A stretch of 64,000 bases of DNA. It comes from a virus. Each line of letters opens with the position of its first letter. Position 1 is the first letter of the stretch. The DNA lies in IMG/VR virus record IMGVR_UViG_3300045988_075126, positions 64,137 to 128,136 of that record. The stretch is one strand, 5' to 3'. Below the pieces are notes generated by a model. It searched no databases. It saw only the letters and a program-made list of their open reading frames with translations, and was not told where the DNA came from. The position numbers and the translations under genes are program-made. This document shows, piece after piece, positions 1 through 58,667 of this stretch.

Positions 1-142
1 TGAGGATGAAGATGAGTTTGTGAAGTGTGATAGATTGCCGTTCACTGAGGAATGGTGGCTTTTGCATCAACTAGTGTATCATCTTGGCTTGACTTGTACC
101 TATACAGGTCGTGGTTATATAATTGAAAAACTTAAAGATTAG
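1..142 (+). CDS. hypothetical protein, C-terminal fragment (gene starts left of window)
   Basis: Frame open from window edge to TAG 140-142 (..EEWWLLHQLVYHLGLTCTYTGRGYIIEKLKD*); next ATG 4 nt downstream. Confidence 0.4.
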   Translation, partial: EDEDEFVKCDRLPFTEEWWLLHQLVYHLGLTCTYTGRGYIIEKLKD

Positions 143-146
143 TAAA

Positions 147-5321: not shown

Positions 5322-5471
5322 AGTTAGAATAATCTAATCGTGAATGATAAGATTTCTATTTTCCAAATCTTCAATGAAACTTTGAGAACGTTCATAAGAC
5401 TTTGGGATTTCATTTTACCTACTCTTTCAGGTTTTCGGCATCCCCTTTGTAATCTCTCTTTGATTACACTG

Positions 5472-5503
5472 CAAAGATACGAAAAATATTTGAAATATGC
5501 AAA
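5472..5503 (-). promoter_or_regulatory. Bacteroides-type promoter for 5043-5231
   Basis: Reverse complement TTTGCATATTTCAAATATTTTTCGTATCTTTGCA: -33 TTTG (5500-5503), 20-nt spacer, -7 TATCTTTG (5472-5479). Confidence 0.6.
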
Positions 5504-16406: not shown

Positions 16407-16465
16407 CATCGTGATTAAGAAACAAAGGTCACAATAACATTATTAATTTAGTTGAGGTTGCACCT

Positions 16466-16489
16466 CCGAGTCGGCACTCGTAAAACGGT
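16466..16489 (+). promoter_or_regulatory. conserved leader element, type B
   Basis: CCGAGTCGGCACTCGTAAAACGGT identical to 2397-2420; ATG 16498 is 8 nt downstream; preceded by hairpin GAGGT..ACCTC. Confidence 0.6.
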
Positions 16490-16714: not shown

Positions 16715-17050
16715 ATGGCTACTACATTTAAGAATATGATGAGAGAAGTGATGAATATGGCACACAGAGCCTTTCAGCTTAAAGGTGCTTATATGAGTTG
16801 GGCAGAATGCTTGAAGCAAGCTTGGCAGGTTATCAAGCTGAAGGCTCGCATGAAGAAGCAGGTCGTTGAGTTCTATTTTCAGAAAATGAATGGTGAGATT
16901 CGTCAGGCTTTCGGCACTTTGATGGAGAGTCATATTGACTACACTCCAAACGGCAAGGGTTACGCTTGCAAGGACTGCACAAAGTATTGGGATGAAGTTA
17001 AGGGCGAGTGGAGACAATTCAAGAACTACAACTTGATTAGAGTTGCTTAA
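16715..17050 (+). CDS. hypothetical protein (paralog of 2429-2767)
   Basis: 111 aa; see 2429-2767. Confidence 0.8.
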   Translation: MATTFKNMMREVMNMAHRAFQLKGAYMSWAECLKQAWQVIKLKARMKKQVVEFYFQKMNGEIRQAFGTLMESHIDYTPNGKGYACKDCTKYWDEVKGEWRQFKNYNLIRVA

Positions 17051-17390: not shown

Positions 17391-17414
17391 CGTGAGGCAC
17401 ACGCTAAACTGCAC
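17391..17414 (+). promoter_or_regulatory. conserved leader element, type A variant (CGUGAGGCACACG + CUAAACUGCAC)
   Basis: Intercistronic; stem CGTG/CACG; same architecture as 21060-21082. Confidence 0.5.
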
Positions 17415-17754: not shown

Positions 17755-17780
17755 GGTGAGGCACACCGAAACAACTGCAC
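17755..17780 (+). promoter_or_regulatory. conserved leader element, type A variant (GGUGAGGCACACC + GAAACAACUGCAC)
   Basis: Stem GGTG/CACC, loop AGGCA; followed by 4-codon mini-ORF ATG 17791 and a 25-aa ORF 17818-17895. Confidence 0.5.
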
Positions 17781-17963: not shown

Positions 17964-18104
17964 CAGCCGAAATAACAAGGTTGTGAAGTAAGGCGCACGA
18001 CTGACTGACATTTGAACAATTTTACAAAATAAATATTTTCATTAGCTCCAAGCGTGGAGCTTCGTCATTCCGTTCATCGCCTTACATAAGTGGACGGTTG
18101 ACAC

Positions 18105-18152
18105 AAGCCCTGTCCGCTCTTACCACATTAGCGGATGGGGCTTTTCGTTTCC
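18105..18152 (+). terminator. intrinsic-terminator-like hairpin inside the antirepressor leader
   Basis: AAGCCC-TG-TCCGCT loop(11) AGCGGA-TG-GGGCTT, then TTCGTTTCC; about 140 nt after the predicted TSS and 44 nt before ATG 18196. Confidence 0.5.
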
Positions 18153-18195: not shown

Positions 18196-19074
18196 ATGAC
18201 ATTAGAATTTAACAAAACTGATGTAAATGTAGAGGCTTTACCAGTAGTCTCAGAGTTCCTTAACAATGAAAAGAGAGGTATTGAAGTTGTAGAGATTATC
18301 GAGCATGACGGCAAACAAGCCGTGAACGCAAGGGAGCTGCACCAAAAGTTGGGCAGTAAGCAAGACTTTTCAACATGGATTAAAAATCGCATAGAAAAGT
18401 ATGGATTCGTTGAAAATCAAGATTTTGAAGTTTTCCACAAAATTATGGAAAACTCAAATGGTGGTCGAAGTCGTATTGAGTATGCCTTATCTTTGGATAT
18501 GGCAAAGGAGTTGTGTATGATTGAGAACAATGAGCAAGGTAGATTGTTCCGTAAGTACTTCATCGAAGTCGAGAAAGCTGCCAGAGTCAAGTACGAGCAG
18601 GAGAAGCTGGACAAGAAGGCTTCCGATTCCTTTGACATCAAGCTGAAGTGGTTGAACTTTCTTCCTGGTTATCTGAACCTCAGCGATGTTTCCAAATTGG
18701 CGATGGCTAAGAAAATTGCTGAACCATTAGGGTTGCCGACACCTGATTATGTGAGCGCACCGAATGGTGCAAAGCATTCCGCTACGGAGTTATTGAAATC
18801 TCATGGTGTAGGCTTGTCTGCTCGAAAGTTCAATGAGTTGGCGGTAAAGGCAGGATTATTGAAACTAAAAGAGCGCAAGGGTACGAACAAGGTACACAAG
18901 TATTGTGAGATTACCAAGAAAGGATTGGCTTATGGTGAGAACGACATCAACGAGAAGAATATGAATCAAACACAACCACATTGGTATGATTCTAAATTTG
19001 GGGAGGTATTGGAAATCATCGGCTACAAGTCTTCCAGGCAAGTAGATATGTTTGCAAGCGGTGAGACACACTAA
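18196..19074 (+). CDS. phage antirepressor (AntA/AntB-type N-terminal domain)
   Basis: AVNARELHQKLGSKQDFSTWIKNRIEKYGFVENQDFEV.. and LSLDMAKELCMIENNEQGRLFRKYFIEVEK match the AntA/AntB antirepressor signature. Confidence 0.7.
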   Translation: MTLEFNKTDVNVEALPVVSEFLNNEKRGIEVVEIIEHDGKQAVNARELHQKLGSKQDFSTWIKNRIEKYGFVENQDFEVFHKIMENSNGGRSRIEYALSLDMAKELCMIENNEQGRLFRKYFIEVEKAARVKYEQEKLDKKASDSFDIKLKWLNFLPGYLNLSDVSKLAMAKKIAEPLGLPTPDYVSAPNGAKHSATELLKSHGVGLSARKFNELAVKAGLLKLKERKGTNKVHKYCEITKKGLAYGENDINEKNMNQTQPHWYDSKFGEVLEIIGYKSSRQVDMFASGETH

Positions 19075-19106
19075 GACAACTGTAGTAATATTGATATATA
19101 ATCGAG

Positions 19107-19144
19107 AAGGAGGGGAATGCGTGATGCACTCTCCTCTTTTTTTT
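19107..19144 (+). terminator. intrinsic terminator
   Basis: Imperfect AAGGAGGGGA / TCTCCTCTT stem followed by T8 run. Confidence 0.5.
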
Positions 19145-20661: not shown

Positions 20662-20783
20662 GTTAAAATATAAAAGAAATACATTAAATAATTTGCATAT
20701 TTCAATAATTCTTTGTATCTTTGCATCGTAATTAAGAAACAAGGTTACTAATTTTAAAAGGTGAGACACACCGTAAAAACTGT
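20662..20783 (+). repeat. 122-bp promoter/leader cassette, copy 1 (partner 41722-41843)
   Basis: Ungapped alignment by eye: 9 mismatches in 122 nt (about 93 percent); covers upstream box, -33, -7, leader and hairpin. Confidence 0.85.
20692..20723 (+). promoter_or_regulatory. extended phage promoter (CATTAAA..TTTGCA..-7 TATCTTTG)
   Basis: TTTG 20692-20695, 20-nt spacer, TATCTTTG 20716-20723. Confidence 0.65.
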
Positions 20784-20784
20784 G
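20760..20784 (+). promoter_or_regulatory. conserved leader element, type A (GGUGAGACACACC + GUAAAAACUGU)
   Basis: Stem GGTG/CACC, loop AGACA; ATG 20792 is 8 nt after ACTGT. Confidence 0.65.
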
Positions 20785-20791
20785 ATTCGTT

Positions 20792-21013
20792 ATGAATACT
20801 AGATTGAGTAAGAAAGAGACAATGGTTTATGGCAACATCGGAGTGATGGCTGACGTAATCGGAGGTAATAAGTACTTCACTTTTGCAGATTTGTATGATT
20901 TCGATTTGGATAATACCAAGGATGAGTTGAAAGAAATATTAAATTCTTTGACCGAAAAGGGTTATCTGAAGAGTTTTAATGATTTCGATAAAACTTATCG
21001 AGTTTTGAAGTAA
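20792..21013 (+). CDS. hypothetical protein
   Basis: 73-aa ORF directly after promoter and leader element. Confidence 0.6.
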   Translation: MNTRLSKKETMVYGNIGVMADVIGGNKYFTFADLYDFDLDNTKDELKEILNSLTEKGYLKSFNDFDKTYRVLK

Positions 21014-21059: not shown

Positions 21060-21082
21060 CGTGAGACACACGTAAAACTGTA
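21060..21082 (+). promoter_or_regulatory. conserved leader element, type A variant (CGUGAGACACACG + UAAAACUGU)
   Basis: First stem pair changed G-C to C-G relative to 20760; ATG 21091 is 9 nt after ACTGT. Confidence 0.6.
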
Positions 21083-26261: not shown

Positions 26262-26406
26262 CATCGTGTTTGAAACAGATGGTCTTCAGAGAGGTCGCTT
26301 CTACCATAATAAGTCAAGACTTAGGAGTTTACGGCATGGTTTATAGATTACCCAGCCCAGCTAGACTATAACAAGGAAACTCTTATTAGGGTGAGAGACC
26401 CTAGAT

Positions 26407-26671: not shown

Positions 26672-26693
26672 CAAGTACTTTTGTCATATTACA

Positions 26694-26766
26694 AGGAATG
26701 TAGCTCAGTAGTAGAGCACTTGGCTTGGTAACCAAGGGGGCGTTGGTGCAAATCCAACCATTCCTT
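26694..26766 (+). tRNA. non-canonical tRNA with 8-nt anticodon loop CTTGGTAA (Thr-GGT-like or Pro-TGG-like)
   Basis: Acceptor AGGAATG/CATTCCT, D arm GCTC-AGTAGTA-GAGC, anticodon stem CTTGG/CCAAG enclosing 8 nt, T arm GTTGG-TGCAAAT-CCAAC (G at position 55); 73 nt. Confidence 0.55.
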
Positions 26767-26769
26767 TAC

Positions 26770-27540: not shown

Positions 27541-27583
27541 GGTGAGAGCGACACCAAGGGGTAAGACCCGAAACAACTAGCAC
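27541..27583 (+). promoter_or_regulatory. conserved leader element, expanded type A (GGUGAGAGCGACACC + GGGGUAAGACCC + GAAACAACUAGCAC)
   Basis: Same GGTG/CACC stem with longer loop, an extra hairpin inserted, and an A-rich box; ATG 27592 is 8 nt after CAC. Confidence 0.55.
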
Positions 27584-35612: not shown

Positions 35613-35632
35613 AAGGGTTAGAGACCCTTTTT
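35613..35632 (+). terminator. intrinsic terminator
   Basis: AAGGGT-TAGAG-ACCCTT followed by TTTT; a second weaker hairpin plus T-run follows at about 35634-35665. Confidence 0.65.
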
Positions 35633-41721: not shown

Positions 41722-41843
41722 GTTAAAAGATAAAAGAAATACATTAAATAATTTGCATGTTTCAAATATTCTTTGTATCTTTGCAATGTAATTAAGAAAC
41801 AAGGTTACTAATTTGAAAAGGTGAGACACACCACAAAAACTGT
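41722..41843 (+). repeat. 122-bp promoter/leader cassette, copy 2 (partner 20662-20783)
   Basis: See copy 1; constant offset 21060 nt. Confidence 0.85.
41752..41783 (+). promoter_or_regulatory. extended phage promoter (CATTAAA..TTTGCA..-7 TATCTTTG)
   Basis: TTTG 41752-41755, 20-nt spacer, TATCTTTG 41776-41783. Confidence 0.65.
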
Positions 41844-41852: not shown

Positions 41853-42227
41853 ATGAAAAAGTTTTTTGAAAACTTATCTGAAAAGATTAATGATGCGGCT
41901 TTTGAGGCGCAGCTTGATGATTTTACTTGCGAGTTTGATGCTATTAACAAACCTGCTGAAATCGTGGTGTCCGTTAAGAGTAGAAAGGTTATCCATTCAG
42001 ATGGAAATATTTCTTCTTATCCAAATTACAATGTAGATAAGATTAATATCTATGATGATGACGGAGAAGACGTTTCTTCAAAATATCCTTTGTTCTGCCA
42101 AAGAGTTAAGGATTGCGTGCCTTCTTATAAAGATGTAGAGAAAGACTTGATGGAGGCAAATATGAGCGACACTGAGCTTTATTTTGGCTCAGAAGCTAAT
42201 TATTTGCGTTATAAATATGGCAACTAA
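41853..42227 (+). CDS. hypothetical protein
   Basis: First ORF of the 41.9-51.6 kb array; ATG after the leader element. Confidence 0.6.
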   Translation: MKKFFENLSEKINDAAFEAQLDDFTCEFDAINKPAEIVVSVKSRKVIHSDGNISSYPNYNVDKINIYDDDGEDVSSKYPLFCQRVKDCVPSYKDVEKDLMEANMSDTELYFGSEANYLRYKYGN

Positions 42228-42238
42228 ACAATTAGGTT

Positions 42239-42364
42239 ATGGAGTACGAAAATAAATTTGTTGGACTTTCATCTGTAACTAGCAACGACCTTAAACTATT
42301 AAGGTATGAACTAGAGTATGGATGGAAATTGGCTCTTATGCCAAATGATGTGTGGTACAACTAA
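42239..42364 (+). CDS. hypothetical small protein (41 aa)
   Basis: MEYENKFVGLSSVTSNDLKLLRYELEYGWKLALMPNDVWYN*; fills an inter-ORF gap. Confidence 0.35.
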   Translation: MEYENKFVGLSSVTSNDLKLLRYELEYGWKLALMPNDVWYN

Positions 42365-42385
42365 TTACTTTTAAAATTTCAAATT

Positions 42386-42625
42386 ATGGCATATTATAAA
42401 GTTAGTGTAGATGTATCGGATTTATTCGATGATATGCTCGTCCATGCACAGAAGAGCTTTCTTATTGACAAGTTTTGCTCTTTAGCAACAGACCAGCAGA
42501 TAGAGGTTGTAAGCGAAATGCTGGAGAACCTTAATGGCGACCAAGTAGCTAAAGTTATAGAAGACGCTTTCGATAACTTGCATGAGCAAGGTCAAGAGCA
42601 AGTAATCAACTATGTGAACGAATAA
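42386..42625 (+). CDS. hypothetical protein
   Basis: ORF track; ATG start; tight same-strand packing; no domain recognised by eye. Confidence 0.6.
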   Translation: MAYYKVSVDVSDLFDDMLVHAQKSFLIDKFCSLATDQQIEVVSEMLENLNGDQVAKVIEDAFDNLHEQGQEQVINYVNE

Positions 42626-42629
42626 GGCT

Positions 42630-42830
42630 ATGATGTCCGATAAACAATATAGAGTTGCTCGCAAGGGTGTTGTTGAGCAACTTAAATTAGCTCAGAGACT
42701 TCATTGCAAGCACATGGAGCAGAAGTATAAAGTGGCTTTGGAGAAGTTAGAGAAACGCTTCTTAAAGCCGGATGCCGTGGGCTGCTTCGATTTGGGCGCA
42801 AGGGTATCAAATAGTTATTATCATCTTTAA
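42630..42830 (+). CDS. hypothetical protein
   Basis: ORF track; ATG start; tight same-strand packing; no domain recognised by eye. Confidence 0.55.
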   Translation: MMSDKQYRVARKGVVEQLKLAQRLHCKHMEQKYKVALEKLEKRFLKPDAVGCFDLGARVSNSYYHL

Positions 42831-43124
42831 ATGGTTAAGGTTATGGGAGCAAAAGTAGAAGTAAAGACAATTCCTTTGCATGGATTGTTCATCTATCGCA
42901 AGCAGGTTTGGCGTTCACTTGGTAAGTTGAGAGCAGAAAGCCATTCTACATCGGCACAGAAAGTATATATGAATGAGCATAATACCGAAGTGTATACCGA
43001 GAATGCCGATTTTATTGATGGATTGAAAGTCACTCCTTATAATGGGGAGTTACCAAAAATATCAAAATACGCTAATTGTAGTATGAGTCACTACCAATAT
43101 TGTTTAAACCAAAAGTCGATTTAA
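42831..43124 (+). CDS. hypothetical protein
   Basis: ORF track; ATG immediately after the upstream stop. Confidence 0.55.
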   Translation: MVKVMGAKVEVKTIPLHGLFIYRKQVWRSLGKLRAESHSTSAQKVYMNEHNTEVYTENADFIDGLKVTPYNGELPKISKYANCSMSHYQYCLNQKSI

Positions 43125-43126
43125 TT

Positions 43127-44131
43127 ATGGATGCAAAGATTAATATAGCAAAAATTTTGAAGGATAAGCCACAAGGAACCAAGTTGTACTCTTCTGCTTG
43201 TGGTAAATGTGAGTTGAAAGAGGCAGACGATAAAAGTTTCAAAGTATCTTTCTATAGTTCGAAGTTTGGCTTTATGAATGGTGGAGAAGGTACTTTTGAT
43301 AAAAATGGCAACTTGTATGATGATGGAGAGTGTATTATTTTCCCATCAAAGGAAATGCGTAACTGGTATAAATTTGATTGGAAAAAAGGTGATGTTCTTG
43401 TAGGGGTAGGACAAAGAGTCATCTTTGAAAAATTCATAGATGAAAATTATACTAAATTTCAAGGTAAATATAGCCTAAGTACTTATGAGGATAGAACATT
43501 AGTAATTGATAGAAGTTATTATACTAGTAACTTTAGTAAAATAAATGCCAGTGGCAATGTTGAAAATTATTTTGAAGATCTCGAAGAGAAGTTGGGTGGT
43601 AAACTCAATCGTCAGACCCTTGAAGTAGAGAAGGCTCTACCAGAGTTCAAGGATGGGGATATAGTTTTTGCTGAGTCTCATATGCTTGGCATAAATACAA
43701 GCTCAATGATTGCTATCTTTAGAAAAGAGAAAGAAATTGATAAGTATAAATTTAGTCCAGCTTTATGTGAGTCTAACGAACATGACACATACCTTAGAGA
43801 AGGCCCTGTAGTATTATCTCCATCCGATATTAAGATATTTCGCTATGCCACTGACTCAGAAAAGCAGCAGTTATTTGACGCACTCGCAAAGGAAAATAAA
43901 GATTGGGATAGCGAGCATAAAATGATTGTGGACTTGAAGCCAAAGGTTGAGCTGAAACCATTCGACAAAGTGTTGGTTAGAGATAATAAAGACCAAAAAT
44001 GGAAAGCGAGTTTCTTCGGCTATAAAGACGAAAACCACTTTATGTGTGAGAATGGTTGTGCTTGGTTTCACTGCATTCCTTACGAAGGAAACGAGCACTT
44101 GTTAGGTACGACTAAAGATGTGGAGGGTTAG
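43127..44131 (+). CDS. hypothetical protein (334 aa)
   Basis: ORF track 43100 (TTG); ATG 43127; three loosely repeated (K)GD(V/I)(L/V) / FDKVLVRD segments suggest repeated small beta domains. Confidence 0.6.
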   Translation: MDAKINIAKILKDKPQGTKLYSSACGKCELKEADDKSFKVSFYSSKFGFMNGGEGTFDKNGNLYDDGECIIFPSKEMRNWYKFDWKKGDVLVGVGQRVIFEKFIDENYTKFQGKYSLSTYEDRTLVIDRSYYTSNFSKINASGNVENYFEDLEEKLGGKLNRQTLEVEKALPEFKDGDIVFAESHMLGINTSSMIAIFRKEKEIDKYKFSPALCESNEHDTYLREGPVVLSPSDIKIFRYATDSEKQQLFDALAKENKDWDSEHKMIVDLKPKVELKPFDKVLVRDNKDQKWKASFFGYKDENHFMCENGCAWFHCIPYEGNEHLLGTTKDVEG

Positions 44132-44133
44132 GT

Positions 44134-44325
44134 ATGATGGATGATAATATCGCAAATAATATAATATTATCTTCAGGCATATCTCTTAAAGAAGCATTTG
44201 ATAATGAAGCTCGTGCCTATAAAAGTAATGACCAAGAAATAGAGCGTCTTTGCTATCATAGTGGCAAGGAAAGCCGTAGAACAAGGAGAATGTTAGAACT
44301 AAGGAAAAGAAAGGGTAGATTATGA
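44134..44325 (+). CDS. hypothetical protein
   Basis: ORF track; ATG start; ATGA overlap downstream. Confidence 0.55.
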   Translation: MMDDNIANNIILSSGISLKEAFDNEARAYKSNDQEIERLCYHSGKESRRTRRMLELRKRKGRL

Positions 44326-44696
44326 TAGACGATAAAGAAATTGATATTGCAGCAAGGGCACAAGTACTTAGCAAGCATTTCAACGAAACTGCATATTTTC
44401 AGCTTAGAAGTATTGAAGATTTTACGGATGGTGCTCACTGGGTTATCAATGAGGAGTTTTTGAAGGACTCGGTTCATCCTGCCAGCGAAGTTCCACGTAA
44501 TGACAACGGAAAGGTTCTTGCGTTCTCAAAAGTGAATAGTAATATTAAGCTCTACGATATGAACGCCATGTTAAATGAAACTGGTTGTGACACATATCAA
44601 GAAATGTGGGAAATTATAGTTAGAGCATATACTTTTACTGATTGGGTATTCGTGGAAGACTTACTTGATTTAATCAAGAAAGGAGGCAAACAATGA
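44322..44696 (+). CDS. hypothetical protein
   Basis: ORF track; ATG start; ATGA overlaps on both sides. Confidence 0.6.
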   Translation: MIDDKEIDIAARAQVLSKHFNETAYFQLRSIEDFTDGAHWVINEEFLKDSVHPASEVPRNDNGKVLAFSKVNSNIKLYDMNAMLNETGCDTYQEMWEIIVRAYTFTDWVFVEDLLDLIKKGGKQ

Positions 44697-44830
44697 TATA
44701 TCGTGATATTGATGGTTACTACCTTTATCAAATGTCGCCAAAGTTTCCTGATAATTTTGTAGTCAATACAACAACTTCTCCAAAGGAATATGGTCAGAAA
44801 CTTTTAAATAGAAAGCGAGGTAGAAAATGA
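44693..44830 (+). CDS. hypothetical small protein (45 aa)
   Basis: MIYRDIDGYYLYQMSPKFPDNF..; ATGA overlaps on both sides. Confidence 0.4.
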   Translation: MIYRDIDGYYLYQMSPKFPDNFVVNTTTSPKEYGQKLLNRKRGRK

Positions 44831-45162
44831 AAGAGTTTAAAGATTTGGTTGTTGGTGATGATGTACTAATTACAAGTAGGTATTACAGACGTATCGCCAA
44901 GGTTGATAAAGTGACAAAGACTCAAATTATTGCTAATAACGCTAGATTTAGAAGAGATTCGGGCTGGCAATGTGGTAGCGATAGCTGGGATAGGAAAAGT
45001 ATATCTGTTCCTACAGAAAAGGAAATATCAGATGTTAAAGAAGAGAATCTTCGTAAGGCTCTCATCTACGCTATCAGTTCTTTTGATTTCAAACGCTTAT
45101 CAACAGATGAGTTAAAACAAGTGTACAATATTGTAAAAGGCAAAGAAAGTGAAAGAGCTTAA
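44827..45162 (+). CDS. hypothetical protein
   Basis: ORF track; ATG start; tight packing. Confidence 0.6.
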   Translation: MKEFKDLVVGDDVLITSRYYRRIAKVDKVTKTQIIANNARFRRDSGWQCGSDSWDRKSISVPTEKEISDVKEENLRKALIYAISSFDFKRLSTDELKQVYNIVKGKESERA

Positions 45163-45337
45163 AGTTGGAGAAAAGACCAAATGTGTCGTCACTATTGAAG
45201 CTGTTAGATGTGGTACATGCGAGGAATGTTTCTTTTATGATGAATATTATCACTGTGCTAATGAAAAAAAATTCGAATGTTTGGGTAAGTATCGCTCAGA
45301 TGGAGAGAATGTAATCTTTAAATTGGTAAAGAAGTAA
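45149..45337 (+). CDS. hypothetical Cys-rich protein
   Basis: GTG start only (no in-frame ATG); ..CGTCEECFFYDEYYHCANEKKFEC.. Confidence 0.45.
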   Translation: MKELKVGEKTKCVVTIEAVRCGTCEECFFYDEYYHCANEKKFECLGKYRSDGENVIFKLVKK

Positions 45338-45341
45338 GCGT

Positions 45342-45464
45342 ATGAGTTACGAATCAAGAAGTAGATGTAAGGAAAGACAGATAACACCTTGTGGAATTTG
45401 TCCTTTAATGTTTAAGTGTCCTTATGATGAAGATAAGGACAAATATAATAATCTTAAAAAGTAA
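45342..45464 (+). CDS. hypothetical small Cys-rich protein (40 aa)
   Basis: Starts at a TAAGCGTATG junction; ..RCKERQITPCGICPLMFKCPY.. Confidence 0.4.
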   Translation: MSYESRSRCKERQITPCGICPLMFKCPYDEDKDKYNNLKK

Positions 45465-45469
45465 AGCGT

Positions 45470-45676
45470 ATGGCAGCAAGATATAATTTTAGAAAAACCA
45501 TTTTACGCAGATTGGAAATCTGTTGGAATGTGCTCACGCATAAGACTTTTATAGCTTATACAACTGATGATATAGGTGATAAATGGAGTCTTATAAATAA
45601 TATAGAAAGTCTTGAACAATTTGGTCAATGGCTTGTAAGTGGTGGGTATAAGAAGAGCAGTAACTATAAAAAGTAA
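45470..45676 (+). CDS. hypothetical protein
   Basis: Starts at a TAAAGCGTATG junction. Confidence 0.55.
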   Translation: MAARYNFRKTILRRLEICWNVLTHKTFIAYTTDDIGDKWSLINNIESLEQFGQWLVSGGYKKSSNYKK

Positions 45677-45681
45677 AGCGT

Positions 45682-45909
45682 ATGAAAACAATAAGATTAG
45701 TAGTAGAACTTATTAACGTTCCTGACGAATGTACAGCCGAGAAATTTAGAACAATACTAGAGGATGGTGAATTTCCTTCTTGTATTGCTGATAACTTTGG
45801 TATCGTAGCTGCTAATATGGCAGATAAGAATATTGAAGATTTAGACAATTTTCAGTTCACCATTTATCCATTTCCTGAAGATGAAGAGGATGAGTTTTAT
45901 GAACTTTAG
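45682..45909 (+). CDS. hypothetical protein
   Basis: Starts at a TAAAGCGTATG junction; acidic. Confidence 0.55.
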   Translation: MKTIRLVVELINVPDECTAEKFRTILEDGEFPSCIADNFGIVAANMADKNIEDLDNFQFTIYPFPEDEEDEFYEL

Positions 45910-45947
45910 TAATTAACCATCCCTTATGGGATATAAATATAAGTAAT

Positions 45948-46091
45948 ATGAAACATATTAAGTTTACAATAGATATAACATTGCCACCAGATGAAAAGTT
46001 TCTTACTAAGGAAGATTTCATGGCGGCAGTATATACTTGTTATGGAAACATTAAAGATGTTCTTCCTTTAGCAATAGTAAAGATTGATTAA
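45948..46091 (+). CDS. hypothetical small protein (47 aa)
   Basis: MKHIKFTIDITLPPDEKFLTKEDF..; followed by 9-bp hairpin ACCCTCTCC..GGAGAGGGT (46099-46124). Confidence 0.35.
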   Translation: MKHIKFTIDITLPPDEKFLTKEDFMAAVYTCYGNIKDVLPLAIVKID

Positions 46092-46137
46092 CTAACCACC
46101 CTCTCCTGTAAAAGGGAGAGGGTAAAAAGAAGAGAAT

Positions 46138-46269
46138 ATGGATGCAAGTAAAATAACATTAAGTAGCTATATTGCATATCTCAAAGGTATGTATAAACGA
46201 TATGGCAATATAAGTATTACACAACTAAAGCATATAGAAAGAAACAGAAAAAAGGAGGATAAGCGATGA
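46138..46269 (+). CDS. hypothetical small protein (43 aa)
   Basis: ATGA overlap with 46266-46631. Confidence 0.35.
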   Translation: MDASKITLSSYIAYLKGMYKRYGNISITQLKHIERNRKKEDKR

Positions 46270-46631
46270 ACAAAGTAATACCGATAGACATCTATAACAT
46301 TGATATGCTTTTCGTGGTAGGTGAAAAAGAAGAATTGAAGTCATCGCTGGAAGAGCATCTGAGCAATGATGATGCGAATAAAGCATATAACGAAATGTGG
46401 AAGGATATTGACGAAGGAAGTATTGGACGGTCAGCCTTACTTAGTAGTGGTCAGGTTGCTTTATGGGTTTCTGATGCAAATGACAAAGGGACATTGGCAC
46501 ATGAGATATTCCATTGTGTGTGCTTCATAATGGAAAAGGTAGGCATCTGCCTATGCCACGAAAGTGATGAAGCCTATGCCTACCTAATTGGATTCATCAC
46601 CAATAAGGTGAATGATGCACTTAAAGAGTAG
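46266..46631 (+). CDS. small HExxH (zincin-like) protein, paralog of 41206-41610
   Basis: LAHEIFHCVCF.. plus downstream E..AYLIG block shared with 41206-41610. Confidence 0.6.
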   Translation: MNKVIPIDIYNIDMLFVVGEKEELKSSLEEHLSNDDANKAYNEMWKDIDEGSIGRSALLSSGQVALWVSDANDKGTLAHEIFHCVCFIMEKVGICLCHESDEAYAYLIGFITNKVNDALKE

Positions 46632-46643
46632 GAGGATTAGAAT

Positions 46644-46757
46644 ATGAAGAAAAGAAAGATAAGCAAGTGGCGCATTAAGCGTGGAGTAAACTTCCATGAT
46701 GAAATGCGCAAAGGTAAGTATGGGTGGAATGAAGCCGCCCATCTAGGTTGGTTTTAA
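46644..46757 (+). CDS. hypothetical small basic protein (37 aa)
   Basis: Preceded by GGAGGATTAGAAT; MKKRKISKWRIKRG.. Confidence 0.35.
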   Translation: MKKRKISKWRIKRGVNFHDEMRKGKYGWNEAAHLGWF

Positions 46758-46768
46758 TTAATGAGAAT

Positions 46769-47095
46769 ATGGCAAAGATTATTTATTTAGGTACAAATGG
46801 TTGTTCCGGACACTACCCTATTGGTATTGATGAGTCTCTGAATGAGGACGAATACAAAAAATGGTGTGAATGTGACAATGAAGCTTGGATAGACAATATC
46901 CGAAGTAATCCTGGTCGCCACTTGGTTAAACATCATGGAGAAGTTTACACCAACTATGGCGTTCCATTCTCGGTAGATGAAGACAGAGTTGGCGACCATA
47001 CCGAATTATTTTGGAAAGGCATTCATACGGAAGAAGAAATCATAAACTTCATAAAGAGTAATCCGTTTTTATCAAAGCAATTTAATTTAAAGTAA
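46769..47095 (+). CDS. hypothetical protein
   Basis: ORF track 46748 (TTG); ATG 46769 (MAKIIYLGTNG..). Confidence 0.55.
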   Translation: MAKIIYLGTNGCSGHYPIGIDESLNEDEYKKWCECDNEAWIDNIRSNPGRHLVKHHGEVYTNYGVPFSVDEDRVGDHTELFWKGIHTEEEIINFIKSNPFLSKQFNLK

Positions 47096-47096
47096 G

Positions 47097-47249
47097 ATGA
47101 GCAAAGAAAAAGCAATTGAAAACATAAAAGAAGCACTTAAATATACTGCAAAAACATCACTAATTGGAACTTCGCCAGCAGAAGTAGCATCTGCTGTTTC
47201 TTGGGCAGAAATTTTATTATTAAGAGCACTTAAAGAGTTGGAGGACTAG
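47097..47249 (+). CDS. hypothetical small protein (50 aa)
   Basis: MSKEKAIENIKEALKYTAKTS..RALKELED*; its 3' end repeats the 3' end of 46266-46631. Confidence 0.4.
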   Translation: MSKEKAIENIKEALKYTAKTSLIGTSPAEVASAVSWAEILLLRALKELED

Positions 47250-47252
47250 AAT

Positions 47253-47408
47253 ATGACAAAATTTAAGGTAGTTAGATATTGGGACACATATCCCGATAGA
47301 GTTGTGGCAACTTGTGATACACAGGAAGAGGCAGAAAAGATATGTAAAGAATATCTTAAAAAACGCAAGCCTATGTACGACTATTTAGTAAGAAAGGAGA
47401 ATGAGTAA
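47253..47408 (+). CDS. hypothetical small protein (51 aa)
   Basis: Preceded by GGAGGACTAGAAT; TAATG overlap downstream. Confidence 0.4.
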   Translation: MTKFKVVRYWDTYPDRVVATCDTQEEAEKICKEYLKKRKPMYDYLVRKENE

Positions 47409-47575
47409 TGACTAGAGAAGAGTTAAAAGATAATTACGGAAATGACATCTGTGAATTATGCTGCAAAGAGTATTTTACAAACCGTGCATATCCTGAATCA
47501 CTTTGTGAGGGTAAGTATTGCGAGGAGGCAGAAGATAGTTTCGCAGATGAACATAATATAGAGTTGGAGGATTGA
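47408..47575 (+). CDS. hypothetical Cys-rich protein (55 aa), paralogous to the N-terminus of 47578-47937
   Basis: ICELCCKEYF..LCEGKYCEEAEDSFADEHNIELED* versus ICEYCRKHII..FCKGWVCEKSYCKEAQDGYAAVNKIELED. Confidence 0.45.
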   Translation: MTREELKDNYGNDICELCCKEYFTNRAYPESLCEGKYCEEAEDSFADEHNIELED

Positions 47576-47577
47576 GC

Positions 47578-47937
47578 ATGAACAGGAAAGAATTACAAAA
47601 CAAATTCGGTATTTCTATCTGTGAGTATTGTCGTAAGCACATCATTTCTGAATATAATTTTTGCAAAGGATGGGTTTGCGAGAAGAGTTATTGTAAGGAG
47701 GCACAAGATGGCTACGCAGCAGTAAACAAAATAGAGTTGGAGGATTTGAATATAAAGAAAGTGGAACCTATTAAGGGACTATCAGAAAGTACTTATAATT
47801 ACCTCGTATCTCATTGTAAACGTAAGATAGAACAATGTAAATATAGCCCATCTTTGCTTCTTATCTATAATGAGCACAGAATCTTTTTGGAGTTGTTAGA
47901 ACATGTTGGACGTGATTTTATAGAGAAGGAGAAATAG
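47578..47937 (+). CDS. hypothetical Cys-rich protein
   Basis: ORF track 47572 (TTG); ATG 47578. Confidence 0.55.
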   Translation: MNRKELQNKFGISICEYCRKHIISEYNFCKGWVCEKSYCKEAQDGYAAVNKIELEDLNIKKVEPIKGLSESTYNYLVSHCKRKIEQCKYSPSLLLIYNEHRIFLELLEHVGRDFIEKEK

Positions 47938-47939
47938 TT

Positions 47940-48143
47940 ATGGCATGGGTAGTAAAGAATAAAGATGGCTCTGAAACAATTTATGAAGTAAAGCCATATA
48001 AATACAACGATGAGTGGGTATCACGGAAAGATAGTTGGGAAAGACCCTATCAACACTTTGGTATTCCGCAAGGTAGCATCAAGAAACTCATCGGAAGAGA
48101 GTTATCTTGGGATGATGAACCTGTCGAACTTAAAGAAGAATAG
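47940..48143 (+). CDS. hypothetical protein (tandem paralog of 48146-48433)
   Basis: MAWVVKNKDGSETIYEVKPYKY..GSIKKLIGRELSWDDEPVELK versus MARTWLAVDKDGSEKIFNVKPFRG..GTIVKLIGRNLTWKDECVEFK. Confidence 0.6.
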   Translation: MAWVVKNKDGSETIYEVKPYKYNDEWVSRKDSWERPYQHFGIPQGSIKKLIGRELSWDDEPVELKEE

Positions 48144-48145
48144 TT

Positions 48146-48433
48146 ATGGCAAGAACATGGTTAGCAGTGGATAAAGACGGTTCGGAGAAGATCTTCAATG
48201 TAAAACCGTTCAGAGGCAATACACAAAAAGATAGAAATCATATATGGGGTACAACATACGTTGGTGAAAACTACGAAAAGTGGTATCCTAAACATGATGG
48301 TCGCAATGAAGATACAGGTGATGCTTATTATAAAGGGCGTTCAATAGAATTGCCTAAAGGTACAATCGTAAAGCTTATTGGGCGGAATTTAACATGGAAG
48401 GATGAATGTGTTGAATTTAAAAAGAATAAGTAA
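48146..48433 (+). CDS. hypothetical protein (tandem paralog of 47940-48143)
   Basis: See 47940-48143; both start at a TAGTTATGGCA junction. Confidence 0.6.
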   Translation: MARTWLAVDKDGSEKIFNVKPFRGNTQKDRNHIWGTTYVGENYEKWYPKHDGRNEDTGDAYYKGRSIELPKGTIVKLIGRNLTWKDECVEFKKNK

Positions 48434-48470
48434 GGTTTGAAATTTATGTTAAAAAGAAGAATTATAGCTT

Positions 48471-48854
48471 ATGAAAAGAGAAATCAAGTTCAAGGCAAAA
48501 CGTCTTGACGGAAAAGGATGGGTTGAAGGTAGCCTAATCAAAAGTACTACTGGGATAAAGGAAAGAGCCTACATAGTAGATAACTTTAGCAGTATGAGTG
48601 ATTATAGTGTTATTGGTATTGACCCTTCTACAGTCTGCCAGTACACAGGACTGAAAGACTGCAAGGGTAGAGAAGTTTGGGAAGGAGATATAGCGGAGTG
48701 TGAGATATATGACTTATATAAGGGGTTCATCAAGGTAAAAGCAGTAATCGAATATATGTACGGTGCATTTGTTGCTATTATTGATGGAATACCTTATTCT
48801 TTATACTTTAAGTATATTAAGGTTATTGGCAACAAATTCGATAAGGATAAGTAG
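48471..48854 (+). CDS. YopX-like protein
   Basis: MKREIKFKAKRLDGKGWVEG.. and ..VCQYTGLKDCKGREVWEGDI fit the IKFRAW....W..G / QYTGL.DKNG..I.EGDI pattern of YopX proteins. Confidence 0.6.
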   Translation: MKREIKFKAKRLDGKGWVEGSLIKSTTGIKERAYIVDNFSSMSDYSVIGIDPSTVCQYTGLKDCKGREVWEGDIAECEIYDLYKGFIKVKAVIEYMYGAFVAIIDGIPYSLYFKYIKVIGNKFDKDK

Positions 48855-48863
48855 GATAAAACT

Positions 48864-48995
48864 ATGGTAGATGTAAGTAATCAGCATTGGAACGAAGATG
48901 GGAGCATTACTATTATATTGAATAGTATTGAAGAAGTCGAAGAGTTCGTTGAGTGTGTTAATATATGGAATAAAATGTGTGAAGATGAAGAATAA
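48864..48995 (+). CDS. hypothetical small acidic protein (43 aa)
   Basis: Below track cutoff; fills a gap; overlaps the next ORF by 11 nt. Confidence 0.35.
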   Translation: MVDVSNQHWNEDGSITIILNSIEEVEEFVECVNIWNKMCEDEE

Positions 48996-49218
48996 GATTT
49001 TAAGCTTAGTCAAGTCAGCCGTTTGGTTCGTCTTGTGTTTGCTTGTAGGTGCATTGATTTTTGAGGGCGTTCGCTCGTTGGCTAACAGCAATGAACCTGC
49101 AAAGAAAATTGGTATGTCAGTATTCACTGAGGAAGGACACGATTATCTGGTTGTGGACACGAAACATGGAGTTTGCGTTATTCACGCTGAGAGCTGTCCT
49201 TGTCATAAAAAGAAGTAG
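48985..49218 (+). CDS. small membrane protein
   Basis: ORF track 48928 (TTG); ATG 48985 gives MKNKILSLVKSAVWFVLCLLVGALIFEGV.. (one TM helix). Confidence 0.5.
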   Translation: MKNKILSLVKSAVWFVLCLLVGALIFEGVRSLANSNEPAKKIGMSVFTEEGHDYLVVDTKHGVCVIHAESCPCHKKK

Positions 49219-49221
49219 CGT

Positions 49222-49458
49222 ATGAAGAAGGAGATATTTGACTTCTCGGAGGCTCTGAGAAGAATGAAGGAAGGGAAGAAAGTGAGAAGAATCGGCTGGG
49301 GTATAGTTGACAAACTATGGATAGATAAAGATAAAAATATCAACATTTTCTATAAAGCAACAACACATTCTTCGGAAGGTTTCATTCATATTTTTCCAAG
49401 TTGTTGGAGTTATTTCACTTGCGAAGATATTCTCGCAACATACTGGGAGGAGGTGTAA
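49222..49458 (+). CDS. DUF2829-like protein (family that includes Thoeris anti-defence Tad2)
   Basis: FDFSEALRRMKEGKKVRRIGWG.. and C-terminal ..CEDILATYWEEV resemble the F.EAL.A.K.GKKV.R.GW ... DLLA.DWE. pattern of DUF2829. Confidence 0.5.
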   Translation: MKKEIFDFSEALRRMKEGKKVRRIGWGIVDKLWIDKDKNINIFYKATTHSSEGFIHIFPSCWSYFTCEDILATYWEEV

Positions 49459-49460
49459 GG

Positions 49461-49715
49461 ATGAAGAAGAAAGAAAAGCTAACGGCATATTGGGATAAGA
49501 AAGAGAACTGTATTGGTGCTTATCACCCTTTAGGGTTTATGACCCAAACAGATGCTTATTATCTCTTCGATAAGGTCTTTACTAAAGATTTTGTCAAAGA
49601 AATAACTGATAGAGGGTATGATGTAAGAACGATGAAGTTTGAAATCTCTCCCAAGCTGCCAAATTATGAGCGATTCAATGACTTATCAAAAAAGTATTAC
49701 GGAAAAGAGAAATAG
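49461..49715 (+). CDS. hypothetical protein
   Basis: ORF track 49401 (TTG); ATG 49461 (MKKKEKLTAYW..). Confidence 0.55.
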   Translation: MKKKEKLTAYWDKKENCIGAYHPLGFMTQTDAYYLFDKVFTKDFVKEITDRGYDVRTMKFEISPKLPNYERFNDLSKKYYGKEK

Positions 49716-49718
49716 CGT

Positions 49719-49886
49719 ATGAAAAAACAAATAGTCTTAGACGAACAGGATATTAAAGAGTTCCACGAGGATGCGGAGCATCTACGTTGGCTACATGAAA
49801 GAATGGTGCGCAAGTATGATGAAAATCCAAACTTTGATTACATGCACCGCTTTGCCAAAATAATTAATAAGTTGGAGCAACTATAG
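49719..49886 (+). CDS. hypothetical small protein (55 aa)
   Basis: Starts at a TAGCGTATG junction and ends at the next one. Confidence 0.45.
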   Translation: MKKQIVLDEQDIKEFHEDAEHLRWLHERMVRKYDENPNFDYMHRFAKIINKLEQL

Positions 49887-49889
49887 CGT

Positions 49890-50096
49890 ATGAAGATTAG
49901 ATTAGCAAAGAAGATAATGAATGCAGACACTTATGCTGATTATCCAAGCAAACACCCTTCTCCCTATTGGAAAACGAAGTTTAAAGAAGCTTATAACGAA
50001 TATGGTTGCTTTATGTTCTGTGAAGATTCGAGCAAGTGTAAATACCGCAATAAGTTCAACCACCGAATTAGAAAGGCGATAAGTTTAACAAAATAA
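49890..50096 (+). CDS. hypothetical protein
   Basis: Starts at a TAGCGTATG junction. Confidence 0.55.
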   Translation: MKIRLAKKIMNADTYADYPSKHPSPYWKTKFKEAYNEYGCFMFCEDSSKCKYRNKFNHRIRKAISLTK

Positions 50097-50103
50097 GTAG
50101 CTT

Positions 50104-50271
50104 ATGGGAATAACGAAAAAATTAAGAGATGAAATTTGGAGTAACGTTCCTAGATTTCTTACCAAAGAAGAAGCTATGGAGTTATGCAAGATAATAAATA
50201 AGTTATATAATAAAGTTTATGGATATGAAAATAAAGAATTTACCAAAGAAGATTTATCTCAACATCAGTAG
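50104..50271 (+). CDS. hypothetical small protein (55 aa)
   Basis: Starts at variant junction TAAGTAGCTTATG; overlaps the next ORF by 53 nt, so uncertain. Confidence 0.3.
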   Translation: MGITKKLRDEIWSNVPRFLTKEEAMELCKIINKLYNKVYGYENKEFTKEDLSQHQ

Positions 50272-50596
50272 CAACAAGGATGAGGTAGATTACAATGAAT
50301 TAGATGGTGTAACGTTCAGTACAGAGAAGATTAACGCTACCGATTGCGATACAGAAAACGTTCCTTACGTGAACGCAGCATCGTTATGGCACGACCTAAA
50401 GGAAGAGAAGCCACCATTAAAAAAGTGGGTAATGTTCCGATATAGTGGTGGCGGTGTAAACCCTACTGCTCTTCACTACGGAGCAATGAGTGATGATGTA
50501 TGGATTGTCACTAGAGGTGACGGCACACAACGTATAGAAACTATGTACGAATGCTACGATAAGATAGAGTGGTTTGACTTTGATGAACTAAAATAG
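50219..50596 (+). CDS. hypothetical protein
   Basis: ORF track; ATG start. Confidence 0.55.
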   Translation: MDMKIKNLPKKIYLNISSNKDEVDYNELDGVTFSTEKINATDCDTENVPYVNAASLWHDLKEEKPPLKKWVMFRYSGGGVNPTALHYGAMSDDVWIVTRGDGTQRIETMYECYDKIEWFDFDELK

Positions 50597-50604
50597 TATA
50601 GCGT

Positions 50605-50838: not shown

Positions 50839-50842
50839 GTGT

Positions 50843-51184: not shown

Positions 51185-51198
51185 TAAAAAGCGAGAAT

Positions 51199-58634: not shown

Positions 58635-58667
58635 AATCTTTATCCTTTATCAAACCAAAAGTCATAG

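Follow-up and report, generated by a model that had tools for sequence, protein, structure and literature searches.

A likely H-type pseudoknot recurs in the mRNA leaders of a temperate Bacteroidales phage

The phage and its repeated leader element

The stretch of DNA analysed here, called the window, spans 64,000 nucleotides (nt) of IMG/VR virus record IMGVR_UViG_3300045988_075126 (positions 64,137 to 128,136), and its subject is an RNA element of about 24 nt that recurs there. The 64-kb window has 38% G+C and holds most of the genome of an uncultured temperate Bacteroidales siphovirus, including a 2177-amino-acid (aa) tape-measure gene, an Ant-like gene and a tRNA array. An S24-type repressor gene (62695-63825) is divergent from the early operon. 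The early recombination operon encodes a Rad52-like annealase, an exonuclease, NinB, a DUF3127 protein and NinG; the products of a second early operon include a helicase, an O/DnaD-like initiator and HU. The phage's promoters are of the host (Bacteroides) type, with -33 and -7 boxes (TTTG ... TAnnTTTG), and about 15 of them are strong. Matches to the window among GenBank phages are unannotated fecal contigs only, and the nearest cultured relative is Bacteroides phage BS-TP2, with 60% helicase identity. At least 266 stretches in IMG/VR carry one protein of the phage; 80 loci of these were retrieved, and they are 93-97% identical. A scan with a 23-nt pattern of the element also gave numerous matches. 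The helicase cluster has 3,471 member sequences, and a search of IMG/VR for close relatives of the helicase (P0022) found none. One GTDB contig of the same phage was binned with Segatella copri, a weak indication that this species is the host.

One copy of the element lies at 20760-20783 on the plus strand, ahead of a 73-aa open reading frame (ORF). It begins 36 nt past the -7 box at 20716-20723, and an 8-nt spacer separates it from the ATG at 20792. Guided by covariation, its parts are assigned as follows. GGUG (20760-63) and CACC (20769-72) would form a first stem (S1), separated by the first loop AG (L1, 20764-65) and by ACA (20766-68), which would pair with UGU (20781-83) in a second stem (S2). 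The A-rich stretch GUAAAAAC (20773-80) would be the remaining loop (L3).

Twelve sense-strand copies of this element are present in the window. The original prediction had listed ten, and each is found where it was placed, with the sequence given for it. The list was incomplete, since a covariance model of the hairpin only (R1) turned up two more copies, at 1017-1037 and 19060-19083. The 13-mer SGTGAGRCACACS has seven exact matches and ten matches with at most 2 mismatches, against 2.1 ± 1.5 in dinucleotide shuffles (0/100 reach 10), so that the motif stands above the shuffled expectation. The 24-mer CCGAGTCGGCACTCGTAAAACGGT occurs twice, against 0 expected. A further covariance model (R2), for which 21 distinct copies from five phages were used and in which only S1 is paired, finds 11 copies in the window at 23.6-43.2 bits, the next best match scoring 13.9 bits; E-values of the covariance models are rough because their calibration was shortened. 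The twelfth copy, at 27541, is missed by the model.

Ten copies are on the plus strand in the plus-strand gene block and two on the minus strand in the minus-strand gene block, all sense to the local genes; every match in relatives is also sense. Eleven of the twelve are intergenic. Not all are independent, because the copies at 2397 and 16466 lie within a 64-nt duplication that extends into an ORF, and those at 20760 and 41820 within a 125-nt promoter-leader duplication, the region of copy 41820 being a duplicate of 20662-20786. When the whole window was compared with Rfam 15, both at the gathering score and at E≤10, no match overlapped any copy. An 81-nt query around copy 41820 gave chance matches only, at 10.4 bits or less, and no PreQ1. 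The earlier statement that no described motif matches the element is thus upheld by Rfam.

A probable second helix between loop and box

The element had originally been described as a hairpin followed by an independent, linear AC(U/G)G(U/C) box. This description has to be abandoned for the box, whose changes follow those of the loop in a covarying second helix. We consider it likely that the element is a compact H-type pseudoknot and not a hairpin with a linear box. S1 has 4-5 base pairs (bp; SGWG/CWCS), L1 is AG, S2 has 3 bp, and L3 is 6-10 nt long, consists of A for at least 50% and usually ends in AAC. S2 joins the last three nucleotides of the hairpin loop (ACA) to the UGU of the "box". 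The hairpin loop has 5 nt (6 in two copies, 7 in one), and the 5' strand of S2 abuts the 3' strand of S1, leaving no loop 2 (L2 = 0). In such a fold S2 would stack straight on S1 in a quasi-continuous 7-bp helix (ACACACC against GGUG plus UGU), with the A-rich L3 placed to occupy the minor groove of S1.

Covariation was scored over seven proposed pairs in 47 distinct sequences, taken from the window and 15 relatives and aligned by R2. Standard pairs fill 98.2% of the cells, against 86.3 ± 1.0% in column shuffles (0/500), and 12-55% in controls in which the 3' partner was slid. The first pair of S1 is GC in 24 sequences, CG in 11, GU in 5, AU in 4, UA in 1 and another combination in 2, and its third pair is UA in 42, AU in 4 and GC in 1. 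Within S2, loop nucleotide 3 and box nucleotide 5 are AU in 29, GU in 8, GC in 7, UA in 2 and other in 1; loop 4 and box 4 are CG in 45 and UA in 2; loop 5 and box 3 are AU in 44 and other in 3. Smaller sequence sets gave the same pairing picture. Since R2 pairs S1 only, the covariation of S2 was not built in by the search. Homologous phages, to which the original prediction had pointed as a check, do carry the element, with covariation of both helices across these 47 sequences. The compensatory stem changes first noticed in the window also stand, and extend to GC/CG/AU/UA/GU at the closing pair and UA/AU/GC at pair 3. Pairing of the outermost position is nevertheless not always kept, as relatives with GGTG..CACA and ..CACG variants have it open.

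Loop nucleotide 3 and box nucleotide 5 change together: AGACA goes with ACUGU, AGGCA with ACUGC or, by wobble, with ACUGU, and AGUCA with ACUGA. A change from C to U at loop nucleotide 4 accompanies one from G to A in the box (AGGUA with ACUAU). When all fetched loci were tallied with a simple descriptor, box C was seen solely with loop G (7 distinct elements with 5 types of stem), the majority box U never with loop U (whose box partner is A in 4 and G in 1), and U at loop position 4 always with A at box position 4 (3 distinct elements). A scan of IMG/VR with the pattern GGTGAGNCACACCNNAAAAACTG, which fixes neither S2 partner, returned loop A with box U in 29 distinct sequences.

G.U pairs are found in both helices (13 distinct cells). 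On the opposite strand they would be A.C, so the structure belongs to the sense strand, that is, to the mRNA. The original prediction had left the choice between RNA and the non-template DNA strand; RNA of the sense strand is retained, and the non-template-DNA reading of the box is not. S1 alone is marginal (-1 to -3.6 kcal/mol), which makes additional tertiary or partner stabilisation plausible. Copy 27541 tolerates the insertion of a hairpin in L3, as expected of a loop. An extension of S1 through pairing of flanking UUUA and UAAA was dropped, its register being inconsistent between copies.

Some observations speak against the pseudoknot. S2 has only 3 bp, and one of its pairs is lost in the CGG-box copies 2398 and 16467 and in one AGACC loop. 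The GGTGAGNCACACCNNAAAAACTG scan also returned UGG in one orthologous leader lineage (4 distinct sequences with loop A, 1 with loop G), and UGA with loop A in one sequence. Many copies belong to paralogous cassettes, and we estimate that independent compensatory events are few, about 2 per pair type. We infer that the pseudoknot folds in vivo. As a predicted fold it is among the smallest covariation-supported pseudoknot motifs, and it is without a match in Rfam.

In architecture, the closest known structures are the frameshift pseudoknots of luteoviruses and retroviruses, of the type seen in beet western yellows virus (BWYV) and simian retrovirus 1 (SRV-1), together with the preQ1-I aptamer. 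Compact viral pseudoknots have a short G/C-rich S1, an L1 of 1-2 nt across the deep groove of a very short S2, and an adenosine-rich loop in the S1 minor groove (PMC5449628). The fold plan and size of the frameshift pseudoknots are those of the element. However, they lie inside ORFs, 6-8 nt past a slippery heptamer, and stimulate -1 frameshifting, whereas the element lies upstream of start codons, in 12 copies. No slippery heptamer was evident at the element copies inspected, where the upstream sequence is promoter, leader or stop codon.

Placement in the window and in related phages

Seven of the approximately 15 strong promoters have the element in their leaders, those with -7 boxes at 2333-40, 16399-406, 20716-23, 27477-84 and 41776-83 on the plus strand and at 58033-40 and 62557-64 on the minus strand. 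Distances from -7 box to element are, in this order, 57, 60, 36, 56, 36, 10 and 91 nt, a wider spread than the 30-60 nt given at first. Across all loci, 105 distinct combinations of element and context were tallied. A -7 box lies within 70 nt in 70 of them, and the distances are bimodal, with one group at 3-18 nt and a sharp one at 35-37 nt. In 75 of the 105 (71%) the G of the box is followed at 6-11 nt by the start codon of an ORF with 25 or more codons, the distance being 10 nt in 35 contexts and 9 nt in 18. The spacer before the AUG is 8-9 nt long and A/U-rich; its sequence is unconserved and its length is kept. Among the ten copies listed originally, the claim that an ATG follows in eight holds in that the first ATG is 7-10 nt past the element end in eight; copy 17755, however, opens a 4-codon ORF, so that real genes follow in seven. 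The location in leaders, the strict sense orientation and the tight spacing to start codons were otherwise confirmed.

The sequence AC[UG]G at -10 to -14 occurs solely where the hairpin is present. AGGAGG is found at the same position, -13 to -7, in several other genes of the phage and at none of the element-bearing genes. Element-bearing transcription units are those of recombination, of helicase and replication, of an amidoligase/GATase pair, of two cassettes with WYL_2 paralogs, and the operon 41853-51570. Structural (P5575, P29353, P34926), repressor, Ant and tRNA promoters are element-free.

In the operon 41853-51570, the copy at 41820-41843 (+; GGUGAGACACACC-ACAAAAAC-UGU, R2 42.2 bits, against 38.9 bits for the copy at 20760) lies 9 nt from the ATG at 41853 and heads a long series of small genes. 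Within window positions 44000-50000, many internal genes of this operon have canonical AGGAGG-like boxes at -13 to -7, though Bacteroidota rarely use Shine-Dalgarno (SD) pairing, and several genes there have the pre-ATG motif AAAGTAAAGCGTATG or TAGCGTATG in common. The leader of the early recombination operon has its copy at 62442-62465 (-; 43.2 bits), 9 nt from the ATG at 62432 of a 93-aa ORF. At the 5' end of the helicase/replication-operon mRNA, the copy at 57999-58022 (-; 38.5 bits) is followed 84 nt downstream of the pseudoknot by the helicase ATG at 57914. This leader also holds a 20-codon upstream ORF from 57973, whose stop overlaps the helicase ATG (ATGA).

The variant copy at 2398-2420 (+; CGAGU-CGGC-ACUCG UAAAAC GGU, 23.6 bits) has a 5-bp S1, a 6-nt loop and an S2 reduced to 2-3 pairs, and lies 8 nt from the ATG at 2429 of a WYL_2-like protein. 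An identical copy at 16467-16489 (+; 25.0 bits) is 8 nt from the ATG at 16498 of a 60-aa ORF, after which comes the WYL_2 paralog at 16715-17050. A bridging form, CGAGUGGCACUCG-UAAAAC-UGU, is present in the relative L081 and links the CGAGU variant to the main type. The expanded variant at 27541-27581 (+), whose pairing was read from the sequence, has S1 GGUG/CACC and a 7-nt loop, AGAGCGA. A whole hairpin, GGGGUAAGACCC, is inserted in its L3 while S1 and S2 are retained, the 3' strand UAGC of S2 facing loop GCGA (A:U, G.A, C:G, G:C). It lies 10 nt from the ATG at 27592 of an amidoligase-like gene, and its tail is homologous to copy 17755. A separate hairpin family, GGGK-(U)RAGAG/UAAGA-ACCC, occurs at 26389-26403 before tRNA-Glu, at 35613-35632 in a terminator and at 27558-27569 in the L3 of copy 27541. 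It is unrelated to the main element. The first two of these hairpins had been taken for relatives of the element, and the model gives no match there.

Two copies are intercistronic. That at 21060-21081 (+; CGUGAGACACACG-UAAAAC-UGU, 36.4 bits) follows the ORF 20792-21013 and a GGGGAU/AUCCCC hairpin, and stands 9 nt before the ATG at 21091. That at 17391-17412 (+; CGUGAGGCACACG-CUAAAC-UGC, 29.2 bits), with loop G paired to box C, begins 8 nt past the stop codon at 17383, the next ATG (17445) being 32 nt off. The orphan copy at 17755-17778 (+; GGUGAGGCACACC-GAAACAAC-UGC, 37.1 bits) has only the 4-codon ORF behind it and lies upstream of a promoter (17956-63) and a terminator (18097-18145). This promoter leads into a 230-nt leader with the intrinsic terminator (-20 kcal/mol) and then into the Ant-like gene, an attenuator-like layout. 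Of the two copies added here, that at 19060-19083 (+; GGUGAGACACACU-AAGACAAC-UGU, 32.7 bits) overlaps the stop of the Ant-like ORF (18196-19074). A -7-like box, TATGTTTG (19047-54), is 5 nt upstream and a terminator (19092-19144, +) downstream, with no ORF; this copy may belong to a short stand-alone transcript. The other, at 1017-1037 (+; AGUGAGUCACACA-AAAAC-UGA, 25.4 bits), has loop U with box A and a closing A.A, and is 6 nt from the ATG at 1044 of a 236-aa ORF (1044-1754).

Three promoters of the window share a box, cGTRATTAAGAAACAAgGTYAC, just past the -7 box, where the mRNA begins (16407-16430, 20724-20746 and 41784-41806), which is also found at promoters of the relatives L166, L167, L170 and L173. 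It could form a small hairpin, with a compensatory change of GUAAU/GUUAC against GUGAU/GUCAC. This box and the pseudoknot 36 nt downstream of the -7 box make up a shared promoter-leader cassette.

Loci of relatives (L numbers) were fetched by protein anchor, with helicase homologs of graded similarity. The element is carried by nine related phages with helicase identity of at least 65%. It occurs in 2-5 copies per 17-21-kb locus in L081, L083, L166, L167 and L170-L173 (helicase identity 65-82%), and was not found in L168, L169 and L085 (62-67%). Neither R1 nor R2 found it in 79 prophage loci of other Bacteroidales species in GTDB genomes (46-60%). The element is thus confined to one clade of temperate Bacteroidales siphoviruses and is not a general host signal; this restriction fits a lineage-specific partner or a lineage-specific invention. 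Among 76-79 near-identical relatives it is invariant, apart from the first two bases of L3 and a rare (<5%) loop variant in copy 21060, while its flanks are polymorphic.

Two further matches were set aside. One, of 20.4 bits, lies in L165; its loop has 4 nt, a matching box is missing, and it is probably due to chance. The other, TGTGAGCCACACA-UAAA-UGG, is conserved in three more distant Bacteroides prophages (L088 at 3286, L089 at 1689, L090 at 9092), between a tRNA and a terminator. Its loop and tail could pair (AGCCA with UGG), and it may be a distant cousin or a chance match; membership is probably not real. In mosaic relatives, homology breakpoints adjoin elements. L174, for example, matches window positions 1-146, beyond which it carries an element copy and the window another gene. 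Shared leader cassettes may serve as exchange points for phage Rad52-type recombination.

Other features of the window concern different RNAs. The DUF805b RNA of Rfam (RF02914), a known Bacteroidetes cis-regulatory motif, is matched at 5416-5448 (-) with 42.7 bits against a gathering score of 35.6, here within a phage. A strong promoter of the minus strand, TATCTTTG (5472-5479), is 24 nt upstream of the match, and there is no convincing ORF behind the match, only a 62-aa TTG ORF. ARAGORN assigns no type to the array tRNA at 26693-26767 (+), giving it a 4-base "tggt" anticodon (its tRNA score in Rfam is 62 bits), and finds a tRNA-Phe with the unusual anticodon AAA at 58667-58740 (-), in the early operon between NinG and a DUF4494 gene. 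A tRNA-like match of 35.6 bits at 63916-63999 (+), at the window edge just past the S24 repressor gene, may be a phage tRNA or an attachment-site remnant.

Possible translation-linked control and its alternatives

Tentatively, we favour the view that the element is a translation-linked cis-regulatory leader structure, placed where an SD helix would sit. It probably controls a set of early and accessory operons. Host-type sigma-A promoters drive the operons of the marked regulon, which would be those of recombination, replication and accessory functions. In most copies the predicted pseudoknot has its 3' edge 8-10 nt before the AUG, which would be the position of the SD/anti-SD helix on the 30S platform, and the folded pseudoknot would act at translation initiation. 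We favour translation because it is difficult to account in another way for a spacing so sharp (9-10 nt) across a spacer of unconserved sequence, and because the 3' edge of the fold falls at the SD/anti-SD site in a phylum largely without SD use; such use is generally missing in Bacteroidetes (PMC3155529). A third reason is that S1-dependent loading of ribosomes can be served by RNA structures, a pseudoknot among them (PMC7708055).

Control of translation could take two forms. The 30S platform and protein S1 might use the pseudoknot for docking or standby, with the following A/U-rich 9 nt and the AUG left single-stranded. Alternatively, the pseudoknot might be the operator of a trans-acting phage regulator, presumably a protein, which would switch the whole leader set on or off together, like T4 RegA or gp32. 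The second form is slightly preferred, given that this phage also translates first genes that lack the element. These element-free first cistrons make a class-specific regulatory role, as trans-factor operator or switchable fold, likelier than a constitutive enhancer. A bolder version, in which the pseudoknot would be a structural stand-in for the SD/anti-SD helix and bind Bacteroidota ribosomes, which keep their anti-SD sequestered, at S1 or by docking in the cleft of the 30S platform, seems unlikely to us. Among the functions first proposed, a translation enhancer or insulator and the target of an RNA-binding regulator are jointly favoured over a loading site for an antiterminator.

Several facts sit uneasily with a role in translation. 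About one quarter of the contexts are not adjacent to a start codon, and no real ORF lies behind copies 17755 and 19060. The helicase-leader copy, whose closing pair is G-C, C-G or A-U across phages, is found at the start of the mRNA in nine phages (window, L086, L083, L166, L167, L170-L173), with 60-85 nt between it and the AUG. Initiation as such can do without the element, since the first genes of other operons (5611, 29389) have plain, short A-rich leaders. Finally, a co-occurrence screen over 8 positive and 82 negative loci identified no RNA-binding partner. The screen did single out a 160-aa protein (53419-53901), an 86-aa and a 159-aa protein, present in 7-8/8 positive and 0-1/82 negative loci. 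They were rejected as partners, being acidic or unannotated (one weak pyrophosphatase match) and encoded in the replication module; they are probably clade markers. A 146-aa HTH_3 protein that adjoins elements in L081, L083, L166, L167 and L170-173 was also rejected, having no homolog in the window, L174, L175 or L182. Candidate nucleic-acid-binding proteins of the window are a Phage_ProQ_C_like protein (PF24203, 32 bits; 44827-45162, +) and the two WYL_2 paralogs, of Sm-like fold (2429-2767 and 16715-17050, +), behind the two CGAGU-type copies. WYL_2 homologs are also present in the element-free relatives L085 and L169.

The closest functional analogies are the T4 translational operators, the tisB standby pseudoknot and Bacteroides opsX. 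The T4 gene 32 leader pseudoknot is single-copy and autogenous, and RegA sites are unstructured and lie on many early mRNAs, forming a multi-gene regulon. The likeness to T4 is that cis elements stand near the initiation region of early phage mRNAs, with one phage protein controlling translation. No homolog of RegA, of gp32 or of another RNA-binding protein was identified among the window proteins scanned, which represent about 63 of about 120 ORFs (Pfam or PHROGs). In E. coli tisB, a 5' pseudoknot and an adjacent single-stranded stretch are needed for S1-dependent ribosome loading (PMC7708055). The element resembles this arrangement, its pseudoknot being separated from the AUG by an A/U-rich 9 nt free of structure. 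The tisB standby site, however, is about 100 nt from a sequestered, SD-containing ribosome-binding site, whereas the element is 9-10 nt from the AUG and has no SD. An SD site proper is purine-rich and GGAGG-like, pairs with the 3' end of 16S rRNA and lies 5-9 nt before the AUG, and the ACUGU of the box is not SD-like.

Co-transcriptional control is possible but doubtful. The nascent pseudoknot would then be a nut- or put-like signal, or the RNA half of an ops-like site, which loads an elongation or antitermination factor or modifies RNA polymerase, the operons being read through terminators or protected from Rho. Such a role would suit an element always in the transcribed sense strand of promoter-proximal leaders, 3-18 or about 36 nt past the -7 box. 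It would also suit the helicase-leader copies, which would need no adjacent AUG, and the ORF-less copies, which precede strong intrinsic terminators (17755 that at 18097-18145, -20 kcal/mol; 19060 that at 19092-19144). Bacteroides offers a precedent in the opsX site of UpxY, where a leader RNA hairpin is combined with a pause and where class 2 sites precede the start codon by 9 nt (+9), linked recruitment of factor and ribosome having been proposed (PMC11685472). Yet the covariation of S2 has the box act as paired RNA, which is impossible inside the RNA-DNA hybrid. S2 forms only once the box has left RNA polymerase, which makes it improbable that the box on its own serves as the pause or as a signal in non-template DNA. 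A pause at the box (Y-1/G+1, hairpin end at -8 to -12) is roughly compatible in geometry and was rejected as the main model for the same reason. At opsX and RfaH ops, by contrast, a pause and non-template or upstream duplex DNA are read by a cognate NusG paralog encoded just downstream, whereas the genes behind the element are unrelated, and no NusG/KOW, N-like or Q-like protein was recognised among the scanned ORFs. Lambdoid nut sites consist of a linear boxA followed by a 15-nt boxB hairpin with a GNRA-like pentaloop, in 2-3 sites per genome behind early promoters, and work with an N-like arginine-rich-motif (ARM) protein. In the element the hairpin comes first and the 3' strand after it, and the loop AGNCA pairs with the tail; the boxA consensus was not searched for. 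Its 12 sites per genome, some of them intercistronic, far exceed known nut or put systems, element-bearing operons have few internal terminators, and the 9-10-nt spacing to the AUG is left unexplained by antitermination through RNA. A role in RNA stability, processing or titration appears rather more unlikely. The pseudoknot would shield transcript 5' ends from 5'-end-dependent decay, and the orphan copy 19060 with its terminator would be a small stable RNA, possibly titrating a leader-binding factor. The helicase-leader copies do lie 3-15 nt past the -7 box, at the mRNA 5' end, in nine phages, and copy 19060 would yield an RNA of about 85 nt, given the -7-like box 5 nt ahead of it and the terminator about 10-30 nt past it. 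Compact pseudoknots can stall 5'-3' exonucleases (PMC10321173). Most copies are nevertheless about 40-95 nt inside the leader, behind another 5' hairpin, and a stabiliser would not need the sharp spacing of 9-10 nt to the AUG.

The remaining explanations are all very unlikely. The motif might have no function of its own and hitch-hike with duplicated promoter-leader cassettes, its covariation reflecting a few paralog lineages. The pairs 20760/41820 and 2397/16466 do lie inside larger duplications, the distance from -7 box to element is very uniform (35-37 nt) in about 40 contexts, and each compensatory type may stem from one or two events only. Against this, the flanks are quite different (5'-terminal, about 36 nt, 56-91 nt, or intercistronic without promoter), the spacer to the AUG keeps its length without conserving its sequence, and the element is nearly invariant in the 76-79 near-identical relatives while flanks vary, and persists in phages at only 65% helicase identity. 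Slightly less credible still is a site in DNA, either an oriented multi-copy repressor operator or a boundary for module exchange of the Rad52 type. Mycobacteriophage L5 stoperators are many asymmetric intergenic sites of about 13 nt in one orientation, bound by repressor as duplex DNA and free of covariation. The element has in common with them its many copies, its single orientation relative to transcription, its intergenic position and a temperate phage; homology breakpoints of mosaic relatives often adjoin it, and the phage encodes a Rad52-like annealase and an exonuclease. It differs by compensatory changes in two helices and four pairs, which keep the helices complementary while variants coexist in one genome. 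Duplex DNA would not select for this; the G.U pairs (13 distinct cells) pair on the sense strand only, and the spacing to the AUG would stay unexplained. The least credible of all is a minimal ligand-sensing riboswitch of preQ1-I-like architecture. The preQ1-I plan has a short P1, an A-rich L3 in the 3' tail that docks on P1, and a P2 formed by loop and tail, adjoining the ribosome-binding region just upstream of the start codon (PMC7038950). As a small H-type leader pseudoknot with A-rich L3 and loop-tail P2, the element shares these features with Rfam family RF00522. The preQ1-I loop, however, has about 11-13 nt, with an L2 and a conserved ligand-pairing C, whereas the loop of the element has 5 nt, with L2 = 0 and no obvious pocket. 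There is no overlap with an SD, and no covariance-model match to PreQ1 even at E≤10 with the 81-nt query. The 12 copies precede unrelated genes (WYL_2-like, amidoligase, helicase, 93-aa early protein, small unknowns), none linked to queuosine, whereas preQ1-I is tied to queuosine synthesis and transport.

Compared with known families, the element lacks a covariance-model match, a ligand loop, a slippery site, a NusG paralog (among the ORFs scanned) and a DNA-level signal. Judged by its sequence, the motif is new, within the already known general class of cis-regulatory leader pseudoknots. What is unusual is its very small size, its 12 copies per genome, its fixed SD-like placement in an SD-poor phylum, and its occurrence in one abundant gut-phage clade.

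How mRNAs are selected for translation in Bacteroidota, abundant gut bacteria that largely ignore SD pairing, is only partly understood. A structured 24-nt module at a fixed 9-10 nt from the AUG, present 12 times in one phage of a clade abundant in human gut viromes, would make this question directly testable with simple reporters. If the element did stand in for the SD helix, a phage-defined set of mRNAs would have privileged, SD-independent and possibly switchable access to ribosomes, through a 24-nt bacterial module resembling an internal ribosome entry site (IRES) and movable before any gene. If a phage regulator binds it, the leaders would form a post-transcriptional regulon in a temperate gut phage. 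If it needs no partner, it would be a compact, portable expression part for the engineering of Bacteroides or Segatella.

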